Sequence record: NC_110934.1
Source of the DNA: Klebsiella phage KPP2018
Reading direction: 5' to 3' (one strand)
DNA: 64,000 nt
The notes under the pieces were generated by a model. It searched no databases, had not been told where the DNA came from, and saw only the letters and a list, made by a program, of their open reading frames with translations. A program made the position numbers and the translations under genes. The stretch's first letter is position 1, and the number at the start of each line of letters is the position of its first letter. Of the stretch, positions 6,632 to 53,030 are shown piece after piece.

Positions 6632-6637
6632 TAAATA

Positions 6638-6662
6638 GAGGGGCTTCGGCCCCTTTCTTTTT
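6638..6662 (+). terminator. rho-independent terminator
   Basis: GGGGC-TTCG-GCCCC hairpin followed by TTTCTTTTT. Confidence 0.8.
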
Positions 6663-6667
6663 AACCA

Positions 6668-9464: not shown

Positions 9465-9467
9465 AAC

Positions 9468-35789: not shown

Positions 35790-37106
35790 TTATTTACCAC
35801 GGGAAATAGAGTAAATTCCATAGCGCAGAGCATCACAAAGGTGAGAGTTAGCATCATGACGTGGTTTTTCACGTGATAATTTCTCTTCGCCTTCTTGGAA
35901 ATCCCACTTATAGTTCTGCAATGCATGAATTAATGAGGAACATGAAGCGTCTACAATAATCTTGCCCTGCTGGAATAGTGCTTGTAAGCATGCTAGACCG
36001 TCTAGGACAGACTTTTTAGCTGGAGCTGATGCAATTTCATGTTCATAAGCTAAGTCCTGGCGGAACTGAGCTGCGGCAGAGTCAACAAAAACACGATCAA
36101 CTTTATAACGATCTATACAGTGCTGAATATACGCAGCATGCTGAGCTGTGGTTTTCTCTGCCTGTTGGTACTCTTCTAATACATAGTAAGTATCCGTATC
36201 GTAATGATATTTAATAGTAAGAACTGCTGTAGGATCACGATAGCCAACGTCAATACCAAGCAACGTTTCGAATGCTTCATCATCTTTAAAGAAGTGACGC
36301 ATACCTTTAAGGTCTTTAACATGATCAATAGCATTAAAGGTATCGAAGATCTGACCTTCGAATACAGAGAAGTCAGCCTCGTATTCCTGACGGAAGTAGT
36401 TTTTACTAACTGTACGACGTGCTTCTTCGATGTCATTCAGATCAGCACGTGGATTATCACGATATGTACCATGAATAGATACCCAGTTAGGTAATGTATC
36501 ATCAAATCCATAGGCATAAAACTCTTTAAACCAGTTACCACCACGAGGAGTAGAGATAAATAGAGCCTTAGAATTAGGCTTATCTAGAGTAGGGCGCAGC
36601 TGAACCCTAAAGGCATCACCACCTACATCAGAAATTGCAGCCTCATCAAAGATGATAAAATCATATGAACGTCCAACTGCTGAGTCAGCCTGAGCAGCGG
36701 AAGCTAGTTTAAACAGTGAGCCGTTTGCCAGCTCAATTTCTTTATCTTTAGCATTCTCACGTTCGGTTTGTAGACCGTACTTTTTAATAAGACCACGAAT
36801 CTGAGACCATCCGATGTTGGCCAGTGAGTAGTTAGGAGCAACTACTAGCACCTTCACATTAGGTTCCAATAACTTTAGGAACCCAAGTGTGTATGCGATG
36901 AAGGATTTACCTACACGGCGTGATACACACGCCGTTACAAAACGATGTCTAGGGTCCTCTAAAGCATTAATAATTGCTATTTGAGGACCATTAGGTGTAA
37001 TACCTTCTTGTGCTAGTATTCCTGAAACAGGTAGACGAAAGAAACGTTTATCTATCCCGAAATCAATAACATCTACTGTATTAACGTAGGGTCTTGATAC
37101 TTCCAT
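35790..37106 (-). CDS. terminase large subunit (438 aa)
   Basis: Walker A-like VSRRVGKS, Walker B-like IIFDEAA, C-terminal RNaseH-like nuclease acidic residues. T5 terminase size class. Confidence 0.85.
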   Translation of the reverse strand: MEVSRPYVNTVDVIDFGIDKRFFRLPVSGILAQEGITPNGPQIAIINALEDPRHRFVTACVSRRVGKSFIAYTLGFLKLLEPNVKVLVVAPNYSLANIGWSQIRGLIKKYGLQTERENAKDKEIELANGSLFKLASAAQADSAVGRSYDFIIFDEAAISDVGGDAFRVQLRPTLDKPNSKALFISTPRGGNWFKEFYAYGFDDTLPNWVSIHGTYRDNPRADLNDIEEARRTVSKNYFRQEYEADFSVFEGQIFDTFNAIDHVKDLKGMRHFFKDDEAFETLLGIDVGYRDPTAVLTIKYHYDTDTYYVLEEYQQAEKTTAQHAAYIQHCIDRYKVDRVFVDSAAAQFRQDLAYEHEIASAPAKKSVLDGLACLQALFQQGKIIVDASCSSLIHALQNYKWDFQEGEEKLSREKPRHDANSHLCDALRYGIYSISRGK

Positions 37107-37588
37107 TACTTCTTACCTCCAGTAGCTAGGGAAGTAATTAAGTCCATGTAGTTTTGATCCCCGGCTCCAGCAATAATATTATTCTGGATGTTGGTCTGGT
37201 TAGCGGGAGTACGGGCTGCTGCCTTCACTTTCTCCAATTCTACCATCATTTTCATTTCTTCCATCTTCATCTTGTGTGCCTTCCAGAGAATATCCATAAT
37301 ATCCTGGTCAGAACCCATGCCAGTTTCTTCCAATTCCTCTAGTTTACGTTTAATAACTTCATCTAGAACACCAAACAAACGATCTCTGTTACGGAAACCA
37401 CTTTCCATAAAAATATCATTTAAGTAGTTCTTAACTTCACTACGATTCATAATATCTCGGAAAGCAATTTCTGACATCCCAAGACTACGTGCGGCAGAAG
37501 GCACATCACTGCCACACTGTAAATAAGCTTCAATCACATCCATCCCTTCAGGGGACATAAGATCTGGTACTAATACATCATTTGCCAT
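37106..37588 (-). CDS. putative terminase small subunit / DNA-binding protein
   Basis: 160 aa, immediately upstream of and translationally coupled to the large terminase. HTH-like N-terminus. Confidence 0.45.
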
Positions 37589-37598
37589 ATTTCCTCCT

Positions 37599-39386
37599 TT
37601 AGGTAAGGCGTTGAACTGTTACTCTTAATCTCGGTAGGAAAATAGCTGCAGCCTCATCAGCGTGAATAATTACGCCCAATTCAGCATTACCATTTCCTAG
37701 ATTTTTAATAGTATAAATATATCCGTTTCTTCTAAATGTTAACTCATCAGGTCTACTTGCCCAAGTTTGAGTATAGCTGTACGCAGTAGTGGAGTGATAA
37801 GGGACTAAGTATCCAGGAGGTAAGGTTAATATTTGATGGAATATTCCATCACCTTCCGTGTAACTATGCTGTCTTCTTCCTTGTACTTGCCAAGCAACAC
37901 CACCGTATGTGCGAATGGCTCCTCCAGCCGTATTGATATTACCCATAATAACTTCAGTAGTTAATATTACTGTTGCGTTAGCATTAGGCAATCCTAATCC
38001 TATGGTGGCCAAAGCTCTATAGTAGTTACCTGCTCCAGGATATGTTGGAGTTATATCATCGCCAACATAAGTGCTAGCAACATTATTAGGAAATAGTCTT
38101 AAGGGTACAGTACTAGGACTCCACACAGCTCCATGCTCATTACCTATAGTGTTATTACTTGAGTTTACGTACCATTGCTTACCAGCTCCGAATTTGTAAA
38201 TACTAATTTGAGACTTAGCCCCTCCATAGTCTACTGGAGACCATAAAGATCCATTACTAGATCCTACAAGTTCACATCTTGCAGTGGTATCTCCAAAGGC
38301 TCCAGTGTACGCTGCGTTATTTCCGACGTATTCCATATCTGGCCTATAGCCTAAGTTACCAAAAGCATTTTGGTTGATAAACTTATATCCAGTATTTGGT
38401 AAACTAACCCCTTTTATAGTAAAATTAGATGGAGTTATAAGTATATCTGACCCAGTAAATGGATTACCAGATACGCCCATATTACCATTAGAGTACCTTA
38501 GATTAAGTACATACCAAATAACTTTGGTAGGTGTAATATTATAACCATCCTGCACATACACTTTCTTAGCAGCCTGTGCCGCTAGATTAGATGTTGAACC
38601 TTTGCATATATAAACCTTATCAGGGTAAGTAGGAGATTGATACAATAAGTTAACATTAGCCGGTACTGTGCCCTTTTTACCTACATAACCTCGTATATTA
38701 GAGTTACAAACGTAGAACCAATTATGTCCTCTATAGGCGGCTCCTATAGGAGCTTGCCAATTAGGGTGCCAGTAGTCAGCATTACCACCATCTATAGGTA
38801 CTGTAGACGCTCCTGCTGGAAATCCTGCTAGAGTCCATGCCCTGCCTATAGCCTCACCAGCATATGCTCCTCCCGGCCTATATAAATTAAACCCAGAGGC
38901 TTGAGATATGGTACCACCTGTACCCTGCCTAGCAATTGATTCTTCATGGCCTAAACCAGAGTTATAAATATAGGTGCCATGTGCTAAACTATTACCTGAT
39001 GCAAAAGCTGACGTAAGACCTACTTCTGCACCAGCCCTACCAATAGGTGGATCCTCAAAAAATGCAGTGAATTGACCAACCTGAGATTGAGTACCATTAA
39101 GAAAGGCTCTATGAGTACCATTAATCTCAATAGCAGTTAGTATAACTCTACCTGGGTCATTGGATTTAATATTTATTATGTCAGAGGGCATCTGACATAC
39201 AAAAAACCCATTTCCGGCATTGCCTAACCCAGCCTCGTAAGTACCATCAACTAGGACAAACGGCATATCACTATGAAAAATACTATTAGCATTTGGACTA
39301 TAGTGACGATTAATGTCACCACCAGATTCAGTATTTAAAGATAGTACGGTCTTACCATCGCTATATTTTCCAGCGAAAAAACCCAT
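37599..39386 (-). CDS. receptor-binding tail protein (T5 pb5/Oad-like, 595 aa)
   Basis: Location (last late gene, divergent from the llp lipoprotein gene) is the T5 oad position. Gly/Asn/Tyr-rich beta-type composition. RBS GGAGATTATATG. Confidence 0.65.
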
Positions 39387-39411
39387 ATAATCTCCTATTA
39401 TAAAAATGTAT

Positions 39412-39440
39412 TTGCTTTCATCCCTCTATTTTGCTATAAT
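39412..39440 (+). promoter_or_regulatory. sigma70 promoter of llp (TTGCTT-17-TGcTATAAT)
   Basis: -35 TTGCTT at 39412-39417. Extended -10 TGCTATAAT at 39432-39440. RBS GGAGAG before the ATG at 39472. Confidence 0.6.
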
Positions 39441-39471
39441 AGATTCATAAATTAGAAATGGAGAGATAAAT

Positions 39472-39738
39472 ATGAAAAAGTTTGTGATTGCACTAGTTAC
39501 CGCAGTTATGTTATCTGGTTGTGCACCTGCTCCCAAACCATTTTGTACTGGATTTGTAAAATCTTTTGGTGGTGCGGGAGAAGAACATTACGGTCTCAAG
39601 ATTCAAAAAGTTCGTATTAAGGGAGATCGCTTCCCAGTAGTACAGCTCCGTACTAAGTTTGGGTGGTGGGATCTCAGTCAGTTTGACCTTAAATATGGTG
39701 ATTGTAAATTTAAACTAGAGCAATCTAACTACCTGTAA
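39472..39738 (+). CDS. llp: lipoprotein Llp-like (receptor-blocking superinfection-exclusion lipoprotein)
   Basis: Signal peptide MKKFVIALVTAVMLSGC with lipobox LSGC. Small size. Divergently placed next to the receptor-binding protein gene exactly as T5 llp/oad. Confidence 0.75.
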   Translation: MKKFVIALVTAVMLSGCAPAPKPFCTGFVKSFGGAGEEHYGLKIQKVRIKGDRFPVVQLRTKFGWWDLSQFDLKYGDCKFKLEQSNYL

Positions 39739-39914
39739 TTAGTATAAAGCAAAAAGACATCCAAGTAAACTAAATTTTTTATTTTTTGGATGGTATATTG
39801 GCAGAAACCACTATGTAAGAAAAGTAGAAGTCCTCTAGGAGGTCACAAGCATGGTTGGTTATGCACAAACTATAAAATATTTTAAAATATCATATTTATT
39901 GGAGCATGAAAGAT

Positions 39915-40043
39915 ATGTCAAATAAAAGAAAGAACAGACGAGGAGAAGTGTACGAAGCGTGGATTAATATTTACGGATTTGGTTTTGTATTATTCCTAAT
40001 CTTCGTAGGCTTTTGGTTAGCAGCTATGGCGGGGTGGATTTAA
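39915..40043 (+). CDS. small membrane protein (42 aa)
   Basis: MSNKRKNRRGEVYEAWINIYGFGFVLFLIFVGFWLAAMAGWI: basic N-terminus plus one TM helix. Below the ORF-track length cutoff. Confidence 0.35.
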   Translation: MSNKRKNRRGEVYEAWINIYGFGFVLFLIFVGFWLAAMAGWI

Positions 40044-40149
40044 TGGGAGTAATAATAATTATTGTTTTATTAGTTGTGGTAATTCTAGGGCAGTGTGTCT
40101 TGGATAACCACTTAGCTCGTATTGAACGTAAGCTACGGGAATATAAATA
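40042..40149 (+). CDS. small membrane protein (35 aa)
   Basis: MGVIIIIVLLVVVILGQCVLDNHLARIERKLREYK: TM helix plus basic tail. ATGG-overlap coupled to the previous small ORF. Confidence 0.3.
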
Positions 40150-40395
40150 ATGTTTAGTATTGTAATTGCTTTTATTATCGGGATACTCGCGGGAGTTTTC
40201 GGGACAACTGCGGCAATCAATAAGCATCGGGAATATATTGCGGGAGTGACGCGGGAGATTGCGGAAAGGGAGAGGAAGTTTGACGAGAAACGTGCGGAGT
40301 TTGAGCGGGAGTGGTCGGATGGATCTCGGGCGTCGCGGAAGAGATTCCGTGAGTTTAGACCAGAACACAGGTTTGATGACCCTTCTATGCGCTAA
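40150..40395 (+). CDS. membrane-anchored protein (81 aa), GC-rich
   Basis: N-terminal TM helix (FSIVIAFIIGILAGVFGTTAAI) then a charged Arg/Glu-rich helix. Marks the start of the GC-richer block. Confidence 0.45.
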   Translation: MFSIVIAFIIGILAGVFGTTAAINKHREYIAGVTREIAERERKFDEKRAEFEREWSDGSRASRKRFREFRPEHRFDDPSMR

Positions 40396-40546
40396 TTTGA
40401 CTTTTGCCAAATTTCATAAGATTACACATGGAGGTGTGTCCAGTGGCCCCCCAGATGAGAATGAGTCTCATTACCGCCCGGTACTTAGCAAGCTAATAGT
40501 CACGGCATGTTATCATTGCACACCGTGACTATTTCAATTTTAATTA

Positions 40547-41323
40547 TTACGCAACTTTTAATTTCTCGATATATTGTTGCGGGCTGCAACTATATTCCGC
40601 GCGTTCTTCCTCGGTCATACTTTCCCAACATAATTTCAAACGATCAACTAGGAACTGATAATCATTATCATCATCGAGAGATTCATCAATAAAGGTTTCA
40701 CCTATCAATGCCACGCCGATTGATAGAATATCGTTAATAGCTTGCGCGTCCAGCGTTTTAAATCCGTATGATGCCGCCGCTGATAGCACGCCTTTATGAT
40801 CATCAATCATTGTGAAATCAGCGTTCGGATATAGCTGTTTAAATAATTCAAAATAATAACTTTTATATACTGCGTCCTTACTGTGGTATATTTCGCTAAC
40901 TTTATCAGCTTCAAAATATTTATGCAGCGTGTCACGGGAAAACACGCGGATATTACTATCCCCACGCCCTCGTAAGCCTTGTTTGCGCAAATAATAATAA
41001 TCCGACTTGCTCATTAGTCGAGCGGTACAAATAATGTTTAAAGTATTTGCATCATTCATACATTGGCGCATATATTCAACTAATGGTAATAAAGTATCTT
41101 GCATAATTAAATCATGCTTACACGCTTCATTTTTATATTTATTTAAATTTAAATTCCCGTCGCTATCAAAGCAAGGTGCTACACGATGGAACGAATTAAC
41201 GATAGTGCCATCCAGATCCCAAATCATGACGCGGGAAATATGCGGGAAATTACGGGTAATATTCGTTTTAACTTGATTCATTTTGTTACGTTCTCCATTA
41301 AAGGGATTTAGTTTATCCAGCAT
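40547..41323 (-). CDS. dmp: HAD-family 5'-deoxyribonucleotidase (T5 Dmp-like)
   Basis: HAD motif I MIWDLDGTIV. Size about 29 kDa. Location in the pre-early block next to A1-like. Confidence 0.7.
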   Translation of the reverse strand: MLDKLNPFNGERNKMNQVKTNITRNFPHISRVMIWDLDGTIVNSFHRVAPCFDSDGNLNLNKYKNEACKHDLIMQDTLLPLVEYMRQCMNDANTLNIICTARLMSKSDYYYLRKQGLRGRGDSNIRVFSRDTLHKYFEADKVSEIYHSKDAVYKSYYFELFKQLYPNADFTMIDDHKGVLSAAASYGFKTLDAQAINDILSIGVALIGETFIDESLDDDNDYQFLVDRLKLCWESMTEEERAEYSCSPQQYIEKLKVA

Positions 41324-41361
41324 TACCCGCTATTTATAAGCGGGTAATAATAAATCAACTA

Positions 41362-41754
41362 TTAAAGACCATAAGCCAACGCATCAGCGATGAAGCTAAT
41401 ATCTTCGCCGGATACATGAGAATGAACACCCGCGCAGATATATACCTTTGCGCTCGATAGCTGATCATCAAAGCAAGCTGGACAAGGCGCGACAACTGCA
41501 AAGGCTAGACCGGATTTTACGGCGTCGATGATAATCGTTTCCTGCTTCACCGTATCAACATAAACGCCTGCGGCCTTGATGTGACTACTTGCGCGGCCTT
41601 GCGTATAGGCGAAAGTAGTGATCTGTAGCGCCTCGTTAAACTCGATTAAATCATCAACAACGTGACCGGCCTCGACGTGGTAGCGTTCGCCATTAGAATA
41701 AACTAGAACAATGGAAGATTGAGCGCGATCGAATGGGATATTTTGCTTTTTCAT
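41362..41754 (-). CDS. hypothetical pre-early protein; weak resemblance to CDA-fold zinc deaminases
   Basis: 130 aa. Contains HVE ... 63 aa ... PCPAC, reminiscent of H/C-x-E ... PCxxC zinc ligands, but spacing is longer than canonical. RBS ATTAATTGGAGTTATAAACATG. Confidence 0.5.
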   Translation of the reverse strand: MKKQNIPFDRAQSSIVLVYSNGERYHVEAGHVVDDLIEFNEALQITTFAYTQGRASSHIKAAGVYVDTVKQETIIIDAVKSGLAFAVVAPCPACFDDQLSSAKVYICAGVHSHVSGEDISFIADALAYGL

Positions 41755-41819
41755 GTTTATAACTCCAATTAATTTAATAAGGGGTATAAGCGGGGTATAT
41801 ACCCCGCTTATAAATTTAA

Positions 41820-43484
41820 TTATGCGAAAAATTTGCCGTTTTTAAAGTCAATCAAAGTGCGCTGGCCGTTTGCATATGTAATTAAATGCGTTTGCGTCCA
41901 GCTTGACGCGCCAACGTTGTAGCCCATATCGAGGGAACCAGCGACGCCAGCGGTATAAACGCCGCCGTATATGCTGGCGGTGTGAGTGTGCCCCGTGTTT
42001 AACTTGCCCAATTTCTTAAATTGCTTCGGATTGCCACGGCTGCCGTTAATGCCGTTGTGACCGTGTACGCCGCACTCAATGCCTGCAATCTTGAAAGATT
42101 GGTCAGTGGTCAGGAATATGGCGTTAAACTCGCAACCTGCAACCGTACGCAGCGCATAATCTAGCACGTTGAAAGTATCGTCATGATCACCGATTGCCGC
42201 GTAAATTGCAGCATTCAGGCGGTGATATAGTTCCGCGTTGGCGGGGTCGTCTTTGATGTTAGCATTACGATCATCAAGCCAACGGGATAGCGCCAAATCG
42301 TGATTCGATTCGACAATGATCGTTTGACTAAAATCGCGCTCCATTGACTCCAGCACGCGCCCGGTATCGATGAGATCATCCAGAACTTTATCACGTCCGG
42401 CGGCATACTGTTTTGCTAGGAATACACCGGATGCACGGTTATGATGATTGCGCGATGTAAAATCGTGAACGTCATGGATAAACTGATATTTTGGTTTAAG
42501 AATATCAAGCAAGCTATTTTCGCCAGCCCATGACGCAGCGGCGCAATCATCATCCAATTTTTCCGCATGAATATCGCCATACTGCAAGCCTAAAACATGC
42601 CCCGACGTTTCAAAGCATCCGGCGGGGGTCGCGCAAATATTCAAATCGTAAAACATGCCGCTTTCATCCATCGTTTCAAGCTGGCGAACAAAAAATTCAC
42701 CGTCTTCGTCGAACTCGACAATAAGCGCACCGTAATTATGCAGCGCTTCGGCTTTTTGCCCTGCTTTTTGCTGAATGTAGTTTTTGAGTGTTGCCGTTCC
42801 GGTTGAATACATGCGGCGCACTACTTCACCTTTGAGAGCTGGGACACTTTCGGCGGTAATTTTAGCGTGACCAATTGCCAGACCTTCAATATTTAAAGCC
42901 GTTGCAGTTTCTGCGAATCCAGAAAGCGGATAATCTGCCGTTGGCAAAACATTAATTTCAGCCATGAAAGCAAAACGGCGATTATTTAAAAACACGTTTT
43001 TGCTGCAAATATATTTATCAAACGCGGAATCATATTTTACACCGTCAGCGCCTTCACCATTCTGGAAGCCGTTTTTATTATAAATATACTTAGAAACAAG
43101 CAAATCAGCGCCGATAAATTTAGCATATTGTTCAAGCGAGGCTAAAAAGTTTTTATGCGGGAAAGTATTATTCTGAATCGATGTAATAATAAAGCGTTTA
43201 CCTTGTTTGACTTCCCACTGTTCCACGGTACTAGAAACAATCCCAGCCGCTTCGGGGCGCTCGTCGTTTTTAATAGCTTTTACAGCTTTCGCCGTTTTTG
43301 GTTTCGCTGGTTTATTTGCTTCCAACCAATCGCAAATTGCTGTCGAGTGTTTTGCAGTATCGTAAACCGCTTTCGAAATATCGTCGCATACTTCCAGTTT
43401 AGTGGCGCGCAGACGTTTACCGTAGAAATTAAAGTCAGCGGCTAGTTTCATGATAGCGGTTTGTTTTTCTGCGGAAATAATCAT
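41820..43484 (-). CDS. A1: A1-like pre-early protein (metallophosphoesterase-type nuclease, 554 aa)
   Basis: Calcineurin-like motifs GDIHAEKLDDD, GNHD-like NHD..., GHTHTASI. Size near T5 A1 (556 aa, as I recall). Start moved to ATG at 43484 (MIISAEKQ...) with RBS TAATGGAGTTTATTATTATG; the tracked 584-aa start lacks an RBS. Confidence 0.7.
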   Translation of the reverse strand: MIISAEKQTAIMKLAADFNFYGKRLRATKLEVCDDISKAVYDTAKHSTAICDWLEANKPAKPKTAKAVKAIKNDERPEAAGIVSSTVEQWEVKQGKRFIITSIQNNTFPHKNFLASLEQYAKFIGADLLVSKYIYNKNGFQNGEGADGVKYDSAFDKYICSKNVFLNNRRFAFMAEINVLPTADYPLSGFAETATALNIEGLAIGHAKITAESVPALKGEVVRRMYSTGTATLKNYIQQKAGQKAEALHNYGALIVEFDEDGEFFVRQLETMDESGMFYDLNICATPAGCFETSGHVLGLQYGDIHAEKLDDDCAAASWAGENSLLDILKPKYQFIHDVHDFTSRNHHNRASGVFLAKQYAAGRDKVLDDLIDTGRVLESMERDFSQTIIVESNHDLALSRWLDDRNANIKDDPANAELYHRLNAAIYAAIGDHDDTFNVLDYALRTVAGCEFNAIFLTTDQSFKIAGIECGVHGHNGINGSRGNPKQFKKLGKLNTGHTHTASIYGGVYTAGVAGSLDMGYNVGASSWTQTHLITYANGQRTLIDFKNGKFFA

Positions 43485-43573
43485 AATAATAAACTCCATT
43501 AAAGGGATAAGGTTAATAACGGCAATATTGCCAAATATAACGCCTCGAATAATAGGCGTTATAATTTGCAACA

Positions 43574-43819
43574 TTAATTTAAAGGCATAAGGCTAGAACT
43601 AACACCACAAACAACGGCGGCAATAAAACAAATCAGACCTAAACGCTTCGCCAATCTAGATTTACGTTTAAAATAATACGAATCTAAATCATTTTGAAAA
43701 TATGCGAACAATAACGAGGCCGCCATAATAAATAGTCCTAGAATCAATGATTCAGTAGGGTAAAAGATCATTTTAAAAACTCCAGTTAAAGGGAAATTAT
43801 AGTGGGGAATAATCCCCAC
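43574..43819 (-). CDS. small membrane protein (81 aa)
   Basis: Two predicted TM helices. RBS ACTGGAGTTTTTAAAATG. Confidence 0.5.
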   Translation of the reverse strand: MGIIPHYNFPLTGVFKMIFYPTESLILGLFIMAASLLFAYFQNDLDSYYFKRKSRLAKRLGLICFIAAVVCGVSSSLMPLN

Positions 43820-43828
43820 TATTTAAAT

Positions 43829-44235
43829 TTATTCACCTGCGGCCTGTTTTACTTCATCGGCAACGCCTAACAGCTGCGCCACGGCGTCCAGCGTTTCCAG
43901 TTTCGCGCTTTCAAGGCTTGCCAGATCATCAGCGTCTTTGATAATGCCGGAATCAATAGCGTGTTTTGCAATTACGCGCACATAGTGAGCTTTACGGATT
44001 GAGCTACCGCCGCCAACTTTGCGCGGCTTATCGCTCTTCTGATAGGCTTTTGCGCTGGTCAATTTTGAGCGAACGGATACGGGGAGGCCGCACCAACTGC
44101 TTTCGCAATCTCTTTTAAACCGTCGCTATTTGCAAAATCTAAACCGTTTTCATTGATTAACTGCTGGTACATGGTAACAGCTTTCTGGGTGTTTTCTTCA
44201 TTCCAGGTGAATTTTGCGGTTTTTGCGTTAGTCAT
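43829..44235 (-). CDS. split A2-sized pre-early gene (58-aa N-terminal ORF 44059-44235 and 77-aa C-terminal ORF 43829-44062 in -1 frame)
   Basis: Upstream part has strong RBS TTGGAGTTTATATCATG and stops at 44059-61. Downstream part is open from 44197 in the -1 frame. U UUA AAA heptamer at 44114-44120 lies in the overlap. Fused product about 127 aa. Confidence 0.4.
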
Positions 44236-44332
44236 GATATAAACTCCAATTAATTTAATTTAAGGGATTAGATTAACTAATGTTAATCGTTATATTCCCC
44301 ATATTTCAGGGGAATATAAAGTTAACACTAAT

Positions 44333-44584
44333 TTATAATACAGCTTCCCATTTTTCGTTGCGTTGAACAACCTTTACAACGTCGCCGGATTTAACGCGAA
44401 CGTTATAAATCGGCTTGCCGTTGTTACTGCGTTCTGTTTCAGCGTATACCGCATCGATTGTATCGAACGGCATAAGCGCCGCGCCTTTAATACGTTCGGC
44501 TTTTCCGGTTAACTCATCCGTTTTAGTAACGAAAGGAATAAAAACGGATTGACCAATTTTCGGCGCATTAGTAACGTTTTTCAT
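44333..44584 (-). CDS. hypothetical pre-early protein (83 aa)
   Basis: RBS ACTGGAGTTTATACCATG of the same family as the other pre-early genes. Confidence 0.5.
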   Translation of the reverse strand: MKNVTNAPKIGQSVFIPFVTKTDELTGKAERIKGAALMPFDTIDAVYAETERSNNGKPIYNVRVKSGDVVKVVQRNEKWEAVL

Positions 44585-44813
44585 GGTATAAACTCCAGTT
44601 TATTCAGTGGATTGTTTCGCATTACCTGCTAAAAAGTATCAGGTAATAAGAAAAAATCCGCTCGCCATTATAAAATCAATTTAAAGAACTCCACGAAGGC
44701 CGCTATATCCCGTTAGGGGGCGGGGCACATTATGGTAAGTGCCGACCGTCAAATTGTATCAAGTTATCGCTCTTGTCGAACTGGGTACATCTTAAAGCCT
44801 ATCGGCTGGGGTG

Positions 44814-45014
44814 TCAAACAGTTTTTTGCGATTTTTTATAATTTTCCTTCAGGTCAATCATAATATTTCGCCAGACCATTTCCAGACCTTGCTGGCGGCC
44901 TTTCTTGTATTGCTTAAATCGGTATTTTACCGATCTTTGCGCTACTGTCAACAAATTTTTTGTTCTGCTGTCCAGTGCCTTGCTAGGTTTACCAGTGATT
45001 AAAAGCGTTTGCAT
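44814..45014 (-). CDS. small basic protein (66 aa), possible DNA-binding
   Basis: Lys/Arg-rich. TAATG-coupled to the upstream 52-aa ORF. Confidence 0.35.
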   Translation of the reverse strand: MQTLLITGKPSKALDSRTKNLLTVAQRSVKYRFKQYKKGRQQGLEMVWRNIMIDLKENYKKSQKTV

Positions 45015-45172
45015 TATTTGAGATCCTCCAAAGCGTATAAACCTTTGCCATCATTGCAGATTATTACTGCTTCTGAATGATTGGCATAGTATTCGTTTGC
45101 ATTCTTTACCCATTGCTCGATCTTTTCGATCGTGTCGTGGGTAGCTGGATGATCGTTATATATTGTTGTCAT
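45014..45172 (-). CDS. small hypothetical protein (52 aa)
   Basis: ATG at 45172 with RBS AAGGAATCGACGATATG. Below the ORF-track cutoff. Confidence 0.3.
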   Translation of the reverse strand: MTTIYNDHPATHDTIEKIEQWVKNANEYYANHSEAVIICNDGKGLYALEDLK

Positions 45173-45862
45173 ATCGTCGATTCCTTATAATGTAATAAGT
45201 TTACCGCCGATAGGCTTTAAGATATACCCAATTTTTAAAGAGCGCGGCGGTAAACTTCCCGCCGTGTAGTTCGTCATTGCCGCCCTACGAGATAAATAAT
45301 AACAAACAACGAAAAAGGCGCAACCTTATTTTTGTAAAGAAATGTAAAGACAAACGCCACCGGACACCGTGCGGCGACCTGGGCGCAGCGCGTTAAAATT
45401 AAAAGAAACGGGCGCGCGAATACCACAAAACATAGCAGATAAGCAAGTAATTTTTTCATTTATATTTGCTTTGCCCTACTTGACAAAATCTAAAAAGCTC
45501 ATGGCAGCGATAAACGGCTTATCCCCTTATGATGGGATGGCTAAAAACTTTATTGCGTTCTAGGGCGTTTTAGGCGCATTCTAGCCTTGTTGATAACTTA
45601 TCCCCAGAAGCAAAAATGAAATTTTCCTAGTTATCCACTTGACTTTTATTTTCCAGTGGATAACTACTTATTTTATAAAATAAATTAATTGACTTTTATT
45701 TGTTAGTATGCATCGGAAAGATAGCAGACTATTAATCACTAGGATGATGGTCATGCTGGTGGATTGTAACGGCCTGAATTATTAGCAGACTATTAATCAC
45801 AGAAAAACTCATTAGCCAACTAACTATTTCATGATATATAATATACTTATAAATTAATGAGA

Positions 45863-45945
45863 AATAATAACTATAAGAAATCATCACCAGTATAATAACA
45901 ACTATAAGAAATCATCACCACTATAATAATAACTATAAGAAACTA
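45863..45945. repeat. tandem direct repeat, about 27-bp unit x3 (TAATAACAACTATAAGAAATCATCACC)
   Basis: Three consecutive near-identical copies visible in sequence. Confidence 0.8.
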
Positions 45946-45954
45946 TCGGCCTAA

Positions 45955-46084
45955 GTGAGAACCACTATCATTTAAGTTATCCACAACGTTATCCACAGCA
46001 CAAAATAATTTGACACGATAGGCGGCGATATGAGGGCTTTTACACAGATTTATCCACAGGTTATCCTACTGTATAAATATACAG
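45955..46084. repeat. left arm of about 130-bp imperfect inverted repeat; 3 perfect DnaA boxes
   Basis: TTATCCACA at 45977-85, 45989-97 and 46050-58. Inner end carries the near-palindrome CTGTATAAATATACAG. About 75% identical to the reverse complement of 49725-49855. Confidence 0.75.
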
Positions 46085-46350
46085 GGTAAAAAGGCAGTGT
46101 TAACAACTGCAATCAATTTTAAGCGGCCTGAAACGCTTTCTAACGAGCTAAACGATGCGGGGCAATATTAAAGTAAAGACCCAACACGTCGCCCTGGTGG
46201 CTTCATCGTGTTTTGCTCTTTATTACACCGCTGCGCGGTTATCATAAAAATAGGCGTTAGGCAAGAAAAATAAAAAAGTAAAATAATCTTTGCCTATGCT
46301 AGAAAATTACCTTTATCATTCACTCACCGATTAACGAGGGAGGCCAACAA

Positions 46351-47328
46351 ATGCGGCTATATAAACCAGATAACGCAACCGTCTTAAAAGGTGCGCTGCG
46401 TAACCTGCTGGACGGTAGCAGAACAACCAGCATTAAGCACTTTGTTAACAAGGCCGAAGATATTCACCAAAATTTTTTTGATGATTTCGACGCCTATGAT
46501 ATGAGTAGTTTTTTGCAACTATATAAGCAAGGGGCAACCATTGTATTATATAATCGGGATAATCACCTGCTTACTAGTAGGGGTCCGGATACCGATTTCA
46601 TAATCGTAAAAGGTAGTATAGTAAAAGCCTATGATACTGGGGCGGGCTTAGAAGTTTTTTCAATAGAAAACTATGAAGCCAACCCCAATGATCTTTATGA
46701 TGTAGAAAATTTTCTCGATTCATTTTGGCGTTATTTATCAGTTGGCTGGAATCGGTCGGATTCTGATGGGTATCGTTTTGCGGCTGTAATGGCGTTTGAT
46801 GATGATGGCAATTTTTTGCTACCGTCGGAAATATACCCCTACGTATATGATGGGGATATAGAAAGCGCGGGCTTTTCTTTCTGGAAGGAGAAAGATCAGC
46901 CCATTGACAACACGGAAAAACATACTGTAAATTCTAGCACTCAAACTACTGAAAACAAAGGAAAAAATGCCATGACCAAGATCGCTAATATCGTTGCCGC
47001 CAATAAGTCTGCCGTTGTAAATGCTGCAAAATTGGAAGCGGGTAAAATTGCACTGACTCAAATTACGAAAGTAGTGGCTAAAAAAGCACCGTTCATGATC
47101 AAAGGCTATATTGATACGCCGATTGGTCGGGTAGTGATCGCTAACCTGCTAAGTGTAGCGGTTGACCAGTACGCCCCGAGTAACCAGAAAGCGAAAGCGG
47201 TAGCAAGCGCGGCAATGGAAGCGGCAATGTTAGAAATGGTGCAAAGTTTTAACATCGCTGAGATGATCGATGAAATGGTAAAAGGTATCGATATTTCTAC
47301 TTTTACCAATAACACCGAAAACGAGTAA
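46351..47328 (+). CDS. hypothetical protein (325 aa), first gene of IR-flanked cassette
   Basis: RBS GAGGGAGG before the ATG. No motif recognised. C-terminal half is Ala/Lys-rich and helical. Confidence 0.5.
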   Translation: MRLYKPDNATVLKGALRNLLDGSRTTSIKHFVNKAEDIHQNFFDDFDAYDMSSFLQLYKQGATIVLYNRDNHLLTSRGPDTDFIIVKGSIVKAYDTGAGLEVFSIENYEANPNDLYDVENFLDSFWRYLSVGWNRSDSDGYRFAAVMAFDDDGNFLLPSEIYPYVYDGDIESAGFSFWKEKDQPIDNTEKHTVNSSTQTTENKGKNAMTKIANIVAANKSAVVNAAKLEAGKIALTQITKVVAKKAPFMIKGYIDTPIGRVVIANLLSVAVDQYAPSNQKAKAVASAAMEAAMLEMVQSFNIAEMIDEMVKGIDISTFTNNTENE

Positions 47329-47393
47329 TAATAACTAGCGGGGATTGTTACCCCGCTTTACTATTCCCTTGATAATTAATAGGAGGCTAATTA

Positions 47394-47888
47394 ATGGCTG
47401 AAGAAAAATATGGCTTCTCACTGGGAGAAGTGAGCACGGCAAAACATGATATGATCATTTTAGTCGATTGTCATACTGGCTATTGCGGGGAAGGGAATAC
47501 CGAGGAATATTTTGTTCCTGCGGGTACGGATCTGGACGCTCTCGCTCATGAAATGGCTATTGATAATGCTTCTCGTTTCGGTAGCGATGGCTATGAAGAC
47601 GAGGAAACTGGCGAATGGTATGAAAATGAAAACGTATATGCAAGCCTTTATCATTATCAATTAAGTAAATCCGGCACATATGTAAACGGCGGTGATCCTA
47701 TTAATTCCGTCATGAAATTAATTATTAAACACGGTGGCGTCGAGATAATTGATAACAAAGCGGTAATATATGCAAACCGATTAAAACAGCTTGTTTATAT
47801 CCCTGATAGTACCCGATGGGATGAATACGCCGTTTTGCATGACGAATTGAAACGATGTTTCAATGTTGAATCCTTACAAGTAGTTTAA
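47394..47888 (+). CDS. hypothetical acidic protein (164 aa)
   Basis: RBS TAGGAGG before the ATG. Glu/Asp-rich. Confidence 0.5.
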   Translation: MAEEKYGFSLGEVSTAKHDMIILVDCHTGYCGEGNTEEYFVPAGTDLDALAHEMAIDNASRFGSDGYEDEETGEWYENENVYASLYHYQLSKSGTYVNGGDPINSVMKLIIKHGGVEIIDNKAVIYANRLKQLVYIPDSTRWDEYAVLHDELKRCFNVESLQVV

Positions 47889-47961
47889 TGTAAAGTTTTG
47901 TAAAGGTCGCCTTTTATGGTGGCCTTTTTTGCTATAATGCCTTTACACCGTTTGAGGACGG

Positions 47962-48225
47962 TTGAAAATTTTCCCAAAAATTTGGAGGCTTAAAATGGTT
48001 GCATATTCTTCTTCTGACGCTCTTTTCACTGGAAAAGGCTGGGTATCTAATCGCTGGATTATTCAAGAAATGGTGCAAGAATACGGCATTGCTAAAACTT
48101 ACACTACCATTCAGGCGCTTTATGATAATGATCAAATCGATCAGCAAACGGCGGGCTTTTTGCTGGACACGCTGAAAGCGGAACACTGCACTAAAAAGCA
48201 AGCGGCAAAAATTATTTTAATGTAA
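47962..48225 (+). CDS. hypothetical protein (87 aa)
   Basis: Preceded by -10-like TGCTATAAT at 47928-47936. RBS TGGAGG. Confidence 0.45.
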   Translation: MKIFPKIWRLKMVAYSSSDALFTGKGWVSNRWIIQEMVQEYGIAKTYTTIQALYDNDQIDQQTAGFLLDTLKAEHCTKKQAAKIILM

Positions 48226-48274
48226 TTAATAAAGGGGCGAAAGTAACGCCCCACTAACTAGGGGAGTATTACAA

Positions 48275-48424
48275 ATGATTATTTTTCGAGCTATTCTGGC
48301 GGGTATCTTGGGCGCTATTTTATCTTTGTTTGCAATAGCTTTCGATGTTCACGCGGTTATTATCGGCGCGGGTATCGCTGCATTTTCTTATCTGCTGGGC
48401 TGCATGACTAGTAAAGGAGAATAA
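48275..48424 (+). CDS. small membrane protein (49 aa)
   Basis: MIIFRAILAGILGAILSLFAIAFDVHAVIIGAGIAAFSYLLGCMTSKGE: two TM segments. RBS GGGGAG. Confidence 0.35.
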   Translation: MIIFRAILAGILGAILSLFAIAFDVHAVIIGAGIAAFSYLLGCMTSKGE

Positions 48425-48426
48425 AA

Positions 48427-48639
48427 ATGATCCGCAACGTTTCTCTTGCACGTTCGAAAGGCTTTAAGCTGGTGGATGCTAACACGTTCGAGCGGGAAGA
48501 TTGTAAAATCGAATATGTAGCACGTAACAAAAATGCCTTTCGTGTTACTGAGAAAAAATTTGATAAGCGCGGCAACGTGATCGCTGAAACGGTTAAGCAC
48601 TTTGCCACCTTTTACGCTGCGTTTCGTGGGGTACTATGA
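48427..48639 (+). CDS. hypothetical protein (70 aa)
   Basis: RBS AAAGGAGAATAAAAATG. Basic. Confidence 0.45.
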   Translation: MIRNVSLARSKGFKLVDANTFEREDCKIEYVARNKNAFRVTEKKFDKRGNVIAETVKHFATFYAAFRGVL

Positions 48640-48776
48640 AAAGCGTTATCGTTATTGCCCTTGCAATGGTTGGCGGTTTTACCGCCACCTTATTCAAAAA
48701 TGACCCCATTTCATTGGGGATCTTTATGTTATTATCTGGCTATCTAATTGGGAGGTTGTCAAATGGTTATTTATGA
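48636..48776 (+). CDS. small membrane protein (46 aa)
   Basis: MKSVIVIALAMVGGFTATLF...: TM peptide. ATGA-coupled. Confidence 0.3.
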   Translation: MKSVIVIALAMVGGFTATLFKNDPISLGIFMLLSGYLIGRLSNGYL

Positions 48777-49107
48777 GGGCAATCGTTTTGTTGCTAATTG
48801 CCGTCCTGCATTATTAGCAAACTACTTAAATCAGCTTTCCCCAGCTTATAAGGGTGTTATTAATATTTATGAGGGCAAGGCGCATTATAAAATCAATGCG
48901 GTCGTTGCCCGTGAACTAGCATTTCAATTTTTGACCTTTGCATCTTGTGATATTCAGGTCATGGGGGAAGCATTAATTGCAGAAAATGAAGATGATTTTA
49001 TTAATATTTTCCGCAAGATATGCACCGAGCGGCTGATAATGAAAGGCGCGTATATTCAATCCACGGCTGATAGTATTGAAACAGCGTTTCGAAAGGTGGC
49101 GCAATGA
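48763..49107 (+). CDS. hypothetical protein (114 aa)
   Basis: ATG at 48763 preceded by GGGAGG. The tracked 48748 start lacks an RBS. Confidence 0.45.
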   Translation: MVIYEGNRFVANCRPALLANYLNQLSPAYKGVINIYEGKAHYKINAVVARELAFQFLTFASCDIQVMGEALIAENEDDFINIFRKICTERLIMKGAYIQSTADSIETAFRKVAQ

Positions 49108-49262
49108 AAAAGTTTTTAATAGCTGGCATGTTTCCGTTGTTGCCTTATGTAATTTGCTGGGCTTTATACGCTCATGGCGCTAGTGTTCCCGCTGTGGCTT
49201 CATTTGGTGTATCGGCGGGCTTTCTAGCTGGACTATTAGCAAGCGTATACTTACGCAAATAA
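49104..49262 (+). CDS. small membrane protein (52 aa)
   Basis: MKKFLIAGMFPLLPYVICWALYAHGASVPAVASFGVSAGFLAGLLASVYLRK. ATGA-coupled. Confidence 0.3.
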   Translation: MKKFLIAGMFPLLPYVICWALYAHGASVPAVASFGVSAGFLAGLLASVYLRK

Positions 49263-49281
49263 TTAATAATGGGGCGTTATT

Positions 49282-49476
49282 ATGAGCAATAAAATTGTTG
49301 TAACCAAAATCAGTACAATGGTTGATGTTTTTTACGTGCCCGATACGCCGGAAAACCGACAAGCGGTCGAGCGTGGAGAATATGATAAAGTGATTTATGA
49401 TCACGATGGTTATTATCAGCATTTAGTGGATTCCTACGGGGAGGAGGAGAAGATCACGCATCGACTACCAGACTAA
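49282..49476 (+). CDS. hypothetical protein (64 aa)
   Basis: Last ORF of the + strand cassette. Confidence 0.4.
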   Translation: MSNKIVVTKISTMVDVFYVPDTPENRQAVERGEYDKVIYDHDGYYQHLVDSYGEEEKITHRLPD

Positions 49477-49724
49477 TAATCACGGGGCGCAACTATCAGG
49501 AAGTGCCCCCAATTCTCAAATGAGAATGATTCTCATTTGACCGCGCCCGCGATGGTTAGCCTGCTAATGGTTAGGGTGTTACGTGTCGCCTTGTGTGATC
49601 GTTAGCGTGCTAACTAATTTTCAAGCCTCCTTCAATTTTGCCCTTGTTTTAGTATCCCCAACAAAATTAAACGCGTTAGAATGCGTTTGAGAGCGTTTTA
49701 ACGCTATATTAGAATTATTCACTG

Positions 49725-49855
49725 CGTAGGAATACTGTATATTTATACAGTAGGATAAGCTGTGGATAAGTCTGTTGATAACGCTTCAAAACGGCTAGAA
49801 TTTTGTCAAGTCAAATCGTGCTGTTAGTAAGTCTGTGGATAACTTAAATAACAGT
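49725..49855. repeat. right arm of inverted repeat; DnaA boxes in opposite orientation
   Basis: TGTGGATAA at 49751-59 and 49824-32. One-mismatch box TGTTGATAA at 49763-71. Inner-end palindrome CTGTATATTTATACAG at 49725-40. Confidence 0.75.
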
Positions 49856-49861
49856 GTTTCT

Positions 49862-50035
49862 CACTTCCGTTCTTAAATGAGAATCATTATCATTTGCATT
49901 TCACTATCTAACTAATAATCATTCCGCTTTTTAAATGAGAATCATTCCGCTTTTTAAATGAGATTGATTCTCATTCCGCTTTTTAAATGCGAATTATTAT
50001 CATTCTCATTCCGCTTTTTAAATGAGAATGATTCT
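49862..50035. repeat. tandem array (5 copies) of about 24-bp unit TTCCGCTTTTTAAATGAGAATCAT
   Basis: Copies begin near 49862, 49922, 49944, 49970 and 50007. The unit contains the half-site AAATGAGAAT of the palindromes at 49519-49541 and 40448-40466. Confidence 0.8.
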
Positions 50036-50053
50036 TATTATCATTCGTATTTA

Positions 50054-50080
50054 GCGCAGGGCAATTGCCCTGCGCTTTTG
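50054..50080 (+). terminator. perfect-palindrome hairpin terminator (GCGCAGGGC-AATT-GCCCTGCGC + TTTTG)
   Basis: 9-bp GC-rich perfect stem, 4-nt loop, T-run on the + strand. Confidence 0.7.
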
Positions 50081-50690
50081 TGCAAATCCGACATTGCTCC
50101 ACGGGTGTTACGTGCGGGCGTGTATGTGCGAATCCGACAATCTTTGGTAGTGTGCAAATCCGACCCGAAAAATTTTTATAGTGTGCAAATCCGACAATGA
50201 ATTTTCCCAAAAACTCCAGCAATCTCGAACTGCGTTCGAATCCTGTGGGGTATGTGCAAATTCGACACGGTTTTTCTAGGATTAAGATGTGCAAATCCGA
50301 CAAGATTTTTGTGACTTCGATTGGAGGGTGTGTGATTGTGTGGGTTTGGGGAGAAGATGAGAGAGCGAGAGAAAATAAGGGAAGAAACTGGAGGAGCAGC
50401 ATGGGTGGCGTGTAACGCCTGATTTGCTGCGTTTTTGGGGAAGAGTTGAGAAGATTTGGGTTAATTGGGCTTGGGGCGAGATAAAGTAAAATTTTATTAG
50501 CAAAATGGGGCAAAATAGCTTGACAAGTGAAAATTCCTGTGGCTCAGGTGCTGCGTACTTTGATACATGGCAGTGGTTTAACCTTAGCAATAATGCTGCT
50601 ATTTTCAGGAGATTATATGTGCCTAAAAACTTAGGCATTTGTGCAAATCCGACCATAAATTTCTAGAAACACAATGTGCAAATCCGACAG
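50080..50690. repeat. iteron array: 8 direct copies of GTGCAAATCCGAC(A)
   Basis: Copies at 50080, 50126 (GTGCGAATCCGACA), 50152, 50183, 50254 (GTGCAAATTCGACA), 50289, 50641 and 50677. All in the same orientation. Confidence 0.85.
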
Positions 50691-50715
50691 TAATTTCTGG
50701 AAATGTGTTTTCAAA

Positions 50716-50885
50716 AAATGTCTCCTAGAAATAACCGCCCTCCCTATAACCGCCCTGTATTAAACCGCCTAGTATATGTTCCTAGAAACTTAGGAGAACC
50801 GCCCACTAGAAGCGTGATATCTCGTGGGTATTTCGTGAGAACTCTGGAGTTTCTAGGAAAGTGTATGTGATCCTAGAGATGGGGA
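50716..50885. repeat. cluster of short repeated motifs: AACCGCC(C) x4 and palindromic TTCTAGAAA-like x6
   Basis: AACCGCCC at 50733, 50748, 50764 and 50797. YYCTAGRAA variants at about 50660, 50688, 50716, 50779, 50850 and 50870. Confidence 0.6.
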
Positions 50886-51146
50886 GCGGCAACAGGTGTA
50901 TCATCTTGAACACAGATATTGCCTTTAAATATATTCGTATGTTTTAAAAGTAAATGATCCCCCATTTCATGTGAGATTCCTCGTGGGGCGCGTGAGTATT
51001 ACGGAAGAACTCTAATATTGGCCCGCGCTAAGACTAGCCGCTATAGCACAGACGCAAATAGAGTTGTAATAATCATCGCCCCTAGAGTTCACAATAAGAG
51101 TTATTGTTAATCTATGAGATTATTATAACATACATTTTTAATAACG

Positions 51147-51902
51147 TCAAGAAGATTTTGCTAACGTTTTTGGATTCTTCCTGGCTTTGAGATATATCCC
51201 TTTAGATGCTAGGTAAATATATGTTGCTAGGAATGAAGATTCTGATCCCGATTCCTCATAGGTTAACGTACCTCTAGGGTATTTATTTGTTTTAGGAGCA
51301 TAGTTAAGCACAGCCGCAGTTAATGATCCTAATCCTAGAACATCCGCAAGACGTCTAAAGGTATTCTCTTCATCATGAATAGCATAAAGAATGTTATCTT
51401 CAATATCCGTTAATGGAATCTTACGGATATGAGATACTGCAATCCGTGCTATCATAGCTCCAATTGTTTTATTAATATCCTCGAAAGAAACACTCTCCAT
51501 ATATTTTAGAGGGGGAAGATGGTCATATTTACATTTCTTAGGCGGAATAAGAAGTTGTTCAGGGTAAGCCTCTAGTGCCTGACGAACGTTTGCTTCTGGA
51601 TATGTTGGCAAAGGTTCATCTATAATAACATGTAAAAAGTTAGCTCTATGCCCTTTAGCAGTTGGATCTAAAGACTTGAGTACTTTATTCATATCCACAT
51701 ATGAATATGCTAGGTCTGCTTGAGGAGCATTAATATCAAACTTAATCTTCTTGCCCTCCCATTTAGCAGGGAACATCTCACAAACAAACATTACTGCATG
51801 TTTGACGTCTGGCTCTAGCTCTGATAGACATTTGTGATCTGCTGTTACTGCTAAAGCGAGTATATTCTTAAATTTATTAGCTTCTTCAATCATATATCCC
51901 AT
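51147..51902 (-). CDS. hypothetical early protein (251 aa)
   Basis: First - strand ORF after the repeat region. No motif. Confidence 0.5.
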   Translation of the reverse strand: MGYMIEEANKFKNILALAVTADHKCLSELEPDVKHAVMFVCEMFPAKWEGKKIKFDINAPQADLAYSYVDMNKVLKSLDPTAKGHRANFLHVIIDEPLPTYPEANVRQALEAYPEQLLIPPKKCKYDHLPPLKYMESVSFEDINKTIGAMIARIAVSHIRKIPLTDIEDNILYAIHDEENTFRRLADVLGLGSLTAAVLNYAPKTNKYPRGTLTYEESGSESSFLATYIYLASKGIYLKARKNPKTLAKSS

Positions 51903-52231
51903 GCCTGCTGACTAGTATCACTAACTTGTGTCTTTTTCTCTCTTCGTGGTTTAAAAGTTCCTGTAGTATTACTTTTACTAGGTTCTAATTTATACCACAG
52001 CATTCCTAGCTGGTTAACCATATGAGCAACATTTCTAGGGGTCAATGGAGGTAGGGATTCACAGTTTGATATCTCTATTAATATATTAAATAATTCTGTC
52101 TCTTTAGCCTTACTGTTTACTACCACCACGTATTCTAATGTCTCTACCTCAGAATCCTCGTCTTTATAGTAAAGGCTAAGAGTAATTAAATTTTCCCCAG
52201 CAGGAGTTATTTTTGTTTTACCAAATATCAT
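51890..52231 (-). CDS. hypothetical early protein (113 aa)
   Basis: Coupled overlap with neighbours. Confidence 0.45.
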   Translation of the reverse strand: MIFGKTKITPAGENLITLSLYYKDEDSEVETLEYVVVVNSKAKETELFNILIEISNCESLPPLTPRNVAHMVNQLGMLWYKLEPSKSNTTGTFKPRREKKTQVSDTSQQAWDI

Positions 52232-52845
52232 TAATTACCTCTCTTATCTTCATTAAGCGCAGCTCCCAACGCCTCCATAATAGCATCTTCTAAACTTCCA
52301 TGTTTACTAGGATCATTAAAATGAATAGCATAAACAGAACTCCTAGAAACTCCAGCATCCGCAGGTGCTACGCTTCGCATATCAGATTCAAAAGCTTCTT
52401 GAGTATGCTTTAACTGTACAGAAGGGCCGTAATCTTCACCAAACTTGTATGACTGCGTACTACTTATCACACCCCCACAAGGAACATTGTGCATATCCGA
52501 CATTAATCTTTTATCGGAGTTATTCAGCATTGCGATTGGCCCTGACTGCCACGGATCTCGAATAGTTACTGGAGTACTGGGGCGGTTCACTTCAGCCTTC
52601 ACAAGTTTGTACCCTGCATCGATTAATGCGTTAATTAGATTATCAGCTGGGATGCGAGCCTTGCCAAAAATCTTACGAGCATCTTCGAGCTTATCCTCAA
52701 GATCTTTACATGCTCTAAGGTCAGTGTGTGCAAATGTTAGCTTCATAGATTTAAATTGTACAGTAGCAGTTAAATCTTTAAAGCTATAATCCCATGTGTT
52801 CAGTTCATGATCCGGTACTACTTGAATAGGTTGTTGTGCAAACAT
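52231..52845 (-). CDS. hypothetical early protein (204 aa)
   Basis: ORF with coupled stop/start. Confidence 0.5.
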   Translation of the reverse strand: MFAQQPIQVVPDHELNTWDYSFKDLTATVQFKSMKLTFAHTDLRACKDLEDKLEDARKIFGKARIPADNLINALIDAGYKLVKAEVNRPSTPVTIRDPWQSGPIAMLNNSDKRLMSDMHNVPCGGVISSTQSYKFGEDYGPSVQLKHTQEAFESDMRSVAPADAGVSRSSVYAIHFNDPSKHGSLEDAIMEALGAALNEDKRGN

Positions 52846-53030
52846 TATATATTCTCCAGTTTGTCTAACAGTTTATGAGCTGCGATGTTATATTGAAAGA
52901 GTTCATTATTGAGAATTTCATTCTCACAGGTTAACTCTAGATTCTTAGTATTGAGGCGACTGCAAATCAGTATCAGTCCCAGGATTATTAGGAGTGAGCC
53001 TCCTAGTAATACAAGAAGTAATGTTTCCAT
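52845..53030 (-). CDS. small membrane protein (61 aa)
   Basis: N-terminal TM helix. Confidence 0.4.
   Translation of the reverse strand: METLLLVLLGGSLLIILGLILICSRLNTKNLELTCENEILNNELFQYNIAAHKLLDKLENI

Follow-up and report, generated by a model that had tools for sequence, protein, structure and literature searches.

The genome record of Klebsiella phage KPP2018 (NC_110934.1), of which we analysed a stretch of 64,000 nt (the window), raises the question of how late genes can run directly into pre-early genes and then into early genes. In phage T5 (AY543070) the left (1-10219) and right (111532-121750) terminal repeats contain the first-step-transfer region. Both repeats open with dmp-A1-A2, the late genes precede the right repeat and the early genes follow the left one; the order in the window therefore requires one copy of the repeat, with the late module on one side and the early module on the other. 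An earlier note, made from the sequence of the window, had explained the arrangement by a collapsed terminal repeat in a sequence that had been opened elsewhere. This explanation is supported by the T5-type repeat elements present in single copy, by the ends of four related genomes and by a sequencing adapter, all described below. We conclude that KPP2018 is very probably a T5-like phage (Tequintavirus) whose linear virion DNA has fixed ends, each bearing a ~10.1-kb direct terminal repeat, the two copies having been merged by assembly.

As references for the boundaries of the merged repeat we used four genomes that were deposited with both copies: T5, MM-1, NBEco001 and X5. Self-comparison gave exact terminal repeats of 10,219 bp in T5, 8,114 bp in NBEco001 and 9,508 bp in X5, and the left repeat of MM-1 measures 10,407 bp as annotated. 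Base 1 of T5 maps to position 40437 of the window and base 1 of MM-1, NBEco001 and X5 to 40438, while the last base of T5, NBEco001 and X5, together with the base at which the left repeat of MM-1 is annotated to end, maps to 50545. Sequences homologous to the termini of genomes with both copies resolved are hence found at 40437/8 and 50545, and the homology with the four two-copy genomes delimits a merged direct terminal repeat, present once, of 10,108-10,109 bp (40437/40438-50545); in T5 there are two copies, of 10,219 bp as compared to 10,109 bp here. The left physical terminus predicted from this homology (40437-40446, plus strand) lies between ...CATGGAGGTG and TGTCCAGTGG..., and the conserved right-terminus motif TTGACAAGTGAAAATTCCTGTGGCTC (50520-50545, plus strand), which is also found in Salmonella phage Th1, ends with 50545 as the last genomic base. 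Searching the 64-kb window against itself retrieved no second copy of the repeat, the only match being an internal inverted repeat.

The right boundary is marked in a further way. Homology to T5, MM-1, NBEco001, X5 and Th1 ends exactly after 50545, and homology to T5, MM-1 and Th1 picks up again at AATGCTGCTATTTTCAGG. In the intervening place Th1 has 37 nt, TAAAAACTCAGGCAATCATGGGCCTTCGGCCCGAAAT, with which T5, MM-1, NBEco001 and X5 agree over the part examined. The 55 nt that follow the right terminus in the window (50546-50600) matched none of the phage records searched by BLAST, and exact searches for the junction sequence in IMG/VR, metagenome contigs and genome contigs gave no match either. 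It was this lack of matches that led us to recognise an adapter. Positions 50546-50591 (plus strand) read AGGTGCTG CGTACTTTGATACATGGCAGTGGT TTAACCTTAGCAAT, where the first part is an A-tail followed by GGTGCTG and the middle 24 nt are the reverse complement of barcode BC22 (ACCACTGCCATGTATCAAAGTACG; PMC9575581). The stretch follows the pattern of the Oxford Nanopore native barcoding 3' adapter, AGGTGCTG-N24-TTAACCTTAGCAAT (PMC11984142), in 46/46 bases; it is an untrimmed native-barcode adapter rather than phage DNA, and the sole copy in the window.

The leading A of the adapter is the dA-tail, and the genomic sequence therefore ends with 50545, which is also where the right end of T5 falls. 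Ligation adapters join the ends of DNA molecules, and one of them can win the consensus at a given position only if very many molecules end there. The adapter at 50546 is a pile-up of read ends at a fixed terminus that was kept in the consensus, and the BC22 sequence from 50546 onwards thereby points, indirectly, to a fixed physical end on the right side of the repeat. The odds that an adapter would coincide by chance with the independently predicted terminus are roughly 1 in 64,000. Reads of the right copy appear to have been stacked on reads passing through the left copy, and the repeat was therefore merged. Two other origins of the odd stretch were considered. Its 43-46 nt were compared with the rest of the window and with relatives, neither of which proved to be the source. 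A recombination scar, for which the AGGTG found immediately outside both ends had been a candidate, was rejected too, the right-hand AGGTG being the first bases of the adapter. Searches of the window found no second copy of the adapter or the barcode, nor the Nanopore sequencing-adapter portion that normally comes next, and phage sequence directly follows 50591.

Several points weigh against this interpretation. The left physical terminus at 40437/8 is predicted from homology, and an adapter remnant of the kind seen at the right end is not present at 40437. Two repeat copies per virion DNA molecule, twofold read depth and a pile-up at the left end are predicted, the window itself containing one copy. 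Another route for the adapter, as open to it as consensus building, is the circularisation of a contig with two copies; this would change the software step and not the conclusion, the adapter being a software artefact on either route. In addition, published boundaries vary by record: phage chee24 is annotated with a shorter repeat of 9,968 bp, which on the window corresponds to 40531-50338.

The last point leads to the possibility that the repeat was merged but has other boundaries, either those of chee24 or the limits suggested by GC content, 40150-50500. The repeat is indeed the GC-richest 10.1-kb block of the window, with maxima for blocks that start at ~40.1-41.4 kb, and the GC-richer block claimed in the earlier note therefore exists. 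The rise is small, however: 40.9% in the repeat versus 38.4% in the remaining window, with 39.6% in the left and 36.5% in the right flank. The same modest pattern is found in T5, MM-1 and X5, so that the GC rise is a real but weak family trait which by itself fails to place the boundaries; as a boundary marker GC was rejected, the step on the left (39.6% versus 40.9%) being too slight. The block of 40.15-50.5 kb proposed in the earlier note was accurate at its right limit, but its left limit is ~290 bp away from the 40437/8 given by homology. Position 40150 is the start not of the repeat but of a gene homologous to T5.162 (40150-40395), which in T5 is unique late DNA outside the repeat. The chee24 boundaries were rejected as well, as both the four reference genomes and the adapter disagree with them: the four genomes all give 40437/8 and 50545 (in three cases checked by exact self-repeat), the adapter begins exactly at 50546, and the homology of chee24 itself to the T5 repeat extends upstream past the start of its annotated repeat. 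We therefore give little credence to other boundaries.

A different explanation is that nothing was merged by the assembler, and that the true template was an intracellular concatemer or a circular replicative form with a single repeat between genome units. Gene order is alike in both cases, since exactly this order is expected where the genome units of a phage with terminal repeats join in a concatemer, and such a template would fit the account in which packaging generates the repeats through extension synthesis at staggered nicks (PhageTerm; PMC5557969). We nevertheless regard this as quite improbable: the adapter at 50546 indicates that molecules ending at a T5-type right terminus were dominant at that position, which points to packaged linear DNA. 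Moreover, virion DNA is what phage genome projects normally sequence. It is harder still to credit a genome that lacks a long terminal repeat altogether, being either headful and circularly permuted or endowed with the pre-early block at one end only, even though the 64-kb window, which could not by itself show a second copy, displays just one. The two terminus motifs match those of the four two-copy genomes to the base, and the DNA of the 3' part of the TerL gene plus TerS (36172-37615) is 94% identical to T5. Headful packaging would have spread the ends along the genome; here the adapter occupies one position, which is that of the conserved terminus, and an end that is fixed rather than variable therefore excludes a headful, permuted genome. 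From what is known of T5 biology, first-step transfer would also find the pre-early genes at the wrong end of a genome with a single copy. The circular permutation proposed earlier is accordingly true of the deposited sequence and not of the virion DNA, which the adapter marks as having a fixed end.

The favoured interpretation, a repeat merged during assembly, can be put as a sequence of events. The assembler would have merged two identical copies of ~10.1 kb into one (40437/8-50545) and opened the record elsewhere, and the end of the late module would therefore run into the pre-early block and then into the early genes. The library would have been an Oxford Nanopore native-barcoding (ligation) library, in which the right-end reads all bore the BC22 adapter; these adapter-bearing reads would have been numerous enough to enter the consensus, overwriting 37 nt where the left repeat meets the early region. 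During infection, if KPP2018 behaves as T5 does, the left repeat would enter the cell first and halt at the injection stop signal, at about 49.5-50.5 kb. It would then express dmp, A1 and A2, of which A1 and A2 would admit the remaining genome, and the terminase would later cut concatemers at two fixed sites, restoring the second copy of the repeat.

Records of this kind have been described before. Most assemblers reduce a terminal repeat to one copy and choose the first base arbitrarily, and in genomes with long direct terminal repeats (DTRs) read depth is twofold between the termini (PMC5557969). The arrangement inferred here corresponds to the 'long DTR' class of PhageTerm (T5, SPO1 type), with fixed termini and a long direct repeat; that call is read-based, and in the present case the embedded adapter stands in for the reads. 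GenBank records of T5-like phages that place dmp, A1 and A2 among the late genes have been attributed to assembly errors caused by the large repeats (Davison, bioRxiv 10.1101/866236). Single-copy records like the window include those of Shigella phage SSP1 (KY963424, 113,299 bp), SP33, ECOP18 and Lindwurm. In records of the SSP1 type the receptor-binding protein, the llp-like gene, dmp, A1, A2, the repeats and the early genes are continuous inside a record of 107-113 kb. Both junctions were spanned in one piece in 25 of the 30 best matches listed, all of them in records of 107-113 kb; two-copy records have 116.6-121.8 kb. Th1, which also has one repeat copy only, was opened ~27 nt upstream of the left end.

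Gene identities were obtained from hidden Markov model scans against PHROG and Pfam, and they bear out the proposed order of late genes, llp, a dmp/A1/A2 block, repeat-rich non-coding DNA and early genes. The last stretch of the late module contains the large terminase subunit TerL (35790-37106, minus strand; PHROG 2, E=2e-52; Pfam Terminase_6N and Terminase_6C) and a small terminase subunit-like protein homologous to T5.156 (37106-37588, minus strand; PHROG 3802, E=6.5e-91), which is 100% identical to the Th1 protein. These are followed by a receptor-binding tail protein of the pb5/oad family (37599-39386, minus strand; 595 aa; PHROG 4815, E=8e-281) and by an 88-aa receptor-blocking lipoprotein of the Llp/Cor type (39472-39738, plus strand; PHROG 1119, E=3.4e-26). 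The latter has a signal peptide with the lipobox LSGC and a Pfam LPAM_1 score slightly under the cut-off, and the SSP1 gene that matches it in position and length is annotated as a receptor-blocking protein. Terminase, receptor-binding protein and llp are therefore, by the profile scans and by comparison with T5, the end of the late module directly upstream of the repeat. The final gene of the unique late region encodes the T5.162-like small membrane protein (40150-40395, plus strand; PHROG 6447, E=2e-47), and aligns with T5 111245-111490, upstream of the right repeat of T5.

The receptor-binding protein and llp cassette is distant from T5 and close to Th1. Whereas the terminase, T5.156, receptor-binding protein, llp and T5.162 genes of the left flank are all shared with T5, the receptor-binding protein is only 30% identical to T5 pb5 and the lipoprotein 28% identical to T5 Llp (E=6e-4); identities to the Th1 proteins are 98.8% and 97.7%, respectively. 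This divergence from T5 suggests that KPP2018 may use a receptor other than FhuA.

The repeat opens on the left with dmp, A1 and A2, which follow each other in the order known from T5 (40547-44235, minus strand), in a block that is colinear with T5 at a DNA identity of 86-88%. The pre-early gene dmp encodes a deoxynucleoside-5'-monophosphatase (40547-41323, minus strand; PHROG 415, E=1.4e-57) with 96.7% identity to the Th1 protein in the same position, and the T5 gene in that position is annotated as dmp. The profile alignment begins at residue 15, and the true start likely gives a protein of 244 aa, with the gene end at 41281. A homologue of T5.002 (41362-41754, minus strand) separates dmp from the pre-early gene for the DNA transfer protein A1 (41820-43574, minus strand; PHROG 1745, E=7e-244), which has 97% identity to the Th1 protein in the same position, a protein that the Th1 record leaves unnamed. 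Between the T5.002 homologue and A1 there is a perfect 28-nt palindrome (41785-41812), which may be a terminator or an operator. A1 is followed by A2, the DNA-binding second-step-transfer protein (43829-44235, minus strand; PHROG 1725, over two open reading frames (ORFs)).

The inner order of the repeat is also that of T5, with dmp, T5.002, A1, A2, the repeat regions, T5.011 onward and the injection stop signal. There are two differences in gene content: the HNH endonuclease gene hegG, which in T5 parts repeat regions 1 and 2, is absent (45173-46350), and an extra ORF of 164 aa (47394-47888; PHROG 6741), found in chee24 and MM-1 as well, is present. The latter lies in a block of small rightward ORFs (46351-49476, plus strand), after which the DNA is non-coding from about 49.5 to 51.1 kb. 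The first early-region gene past the repeat (51147-51902, minus strand; PHROG 8993, E=1.4e-106) is 100% identical to Th1_012, and from here the early genes run leftward. This right flank is made up of genes homologous to the early genes of T5, starting with T5.019, and in it T5 11898-12999 aligns to 52227-53334. The early genes lys (endolysin, 60724-61137), hol (holin, 61134-61790) and dnk (deoxynucleoside monophosphate kinase, 62559-63311) do follow, as had been claimed, but 10-13 kb further on than the region to which they had been assigned.

A2 differs from its counterpart in T5 by a frameshift. A 1-bp deletion near 44083, in GGCCTC-CCCG, splits the gene into two ORFs, one of 58 aa and the other of 77 aa, which match PHROG 1725 positions 1-52 and 59-128 separately. 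The deletion is evident in the alignment with T5, MM-1 and chee24, and A2 is a single ORF of 408 bp in T5, MM-1, chee24, NBEco001, X5, SSP1 and Th1; the single-copy SSP1 record, unlike the window, has an A2 annotated as intact. None of the seven relatives examined (0/7) has the window's sequence at the deletion site. An intact form of A2 with an extra T near 44083, similar to GGCTTCTCCCG, would mark the frameshift as an error. As a test of general Nanopore error, 41 genes between 37 and 61 kb were compared by tblastn: the two halves of A2 were in different frames, and no other frameshift was found among these genes. We consider that the A2 frameshift is probably a sequencing (Nanopore) error, because the C-terminal part is 100% identical to Th1 and the deletion site is a short C run. 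It is unlikely, though conceivable, that the deletion is genuine and present in both repeat copies, in which case second-step transfer would be done with an A2 in two pieces or truncated; a genuine split would inform on which part of A2 releases the injection stop.

The artefact of a merged repeat is already known, and its description here is of value for curation rather than as a discovery; the understanding of T5-like phages is unchanged by it. The record would be re-opened at 40437/8 with the 10.1-kb repeat added at the right end, making the true genome ~10.1 kb longer than the deposited sequence. The 46 nt of adapter at 50546-50591, which in the window stand for 37 nt past the right end, are contamination to be replaced by roughly 37 nt of genuine sequence, and the A2 frameshift deserves a recheck. 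In a record corrected in this way, homology would suffice to place the physical ends, the set of pre-early genes and the first-step-transfer boundary. The expectation that both the ends and this boundary lie inside the window agrees with the positions predicted by homology, 40437/8 and 50545 for the ends and about 49.5-50.5 kb for the boundary.

The wider context agrees with a T5-like phage. A BLAST search of positions 39000-52000 against the phage collection matched 516 records, of which the best were all T5-like phages of Salmonella, Escherichia and Shigella. Over the first 25 kb of the window the best phage record was that of Salmonella phage SaI_NFG_5581, with at most 96.7% identity, and the region of 49-53 kb was 96.6% identical to Th1. 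No phage record identical to the window was found, the top match having ~96.7% identity over 25 kb.

The DNA described earlier as iteron-rich and non-coding is present, and it corresponds to the known conserved repeat regions of T5-like phages, including the repeats of the injection stop. In repeat region 2, an inverted-repeat arm of the form IRC-spacer-IRD (45953-46099; 147 nt) is 74% complementary to its partner arm, IRD'-spacer-IRC' (49720-49866). Four consensus DnaA boxes form two pairs, at 45977 and 45989 and at 46038 and 46050, with 3 bp between the boxes of a pair; both inverted-repeat arms bear paired DnaA boxes, including the variant TTATCAACA in another inverted repeat. A tandem array (49917-50046) is followed by eight direct DRD repeats, exact matches to TGTGCRAATYCGAC (50079-50688, plus strand), six of which are within the terminal repeat and two past its right end. 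Searching the whole window for the DRD sequence with up to one mismatch retrieved 10 occurrences, including these eight, as compared to 0.03 expected by chance. The untranslated DNA with which the repeat closes on the right therefore has the IRD'-spacer-IRC' arm with its partner, the paired DnaA boxes and the DRD array, and the inverted repeats, DnaA boxes and DRD array all agree with Davison's account of the repeat regions of T5-like phages. According to the same account repeat region 3 extends past the repeat boundary into unique DNA; in the window, two DRD repeats (50640-50688) are located in unique early DNA.

The injection stop signal of T5 (9140-10149) maps to 49468-50474, which contains the IRD'-spacer-IRC' arm, the tandem array and DRD repeats and would be the equivalent of the first-step-transfer boundary, predicted by analogy at about 49.5-50.5 kb. 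The site of the major single-strand interruption (nick) of T5, 9748/9749, maps to 50075/50076 on the minus strand, where 40 of the 41 surrounding bases are identical; this position is the predicted equivalent of the T5 nick.

A near-palindromic 21-mer, CAGATGAGAATGAGTCTCATT, related to AAATGAGAATGATTCTCATTT, is located at 40452-40472, 15 nt inward from the left terminus as predicted, and the injection-stop region has four further occurrences (49517-49537, 49874-49894, 49955-49975 and 50019-50039). At the position of the left-end copy T5 and MM-1 have other sequence; the motif is present in chee24, and the starts of X5 and NBEco001 open in a manner similar to this region, with ...CCAGATG and ...CTAGATG, respectively.

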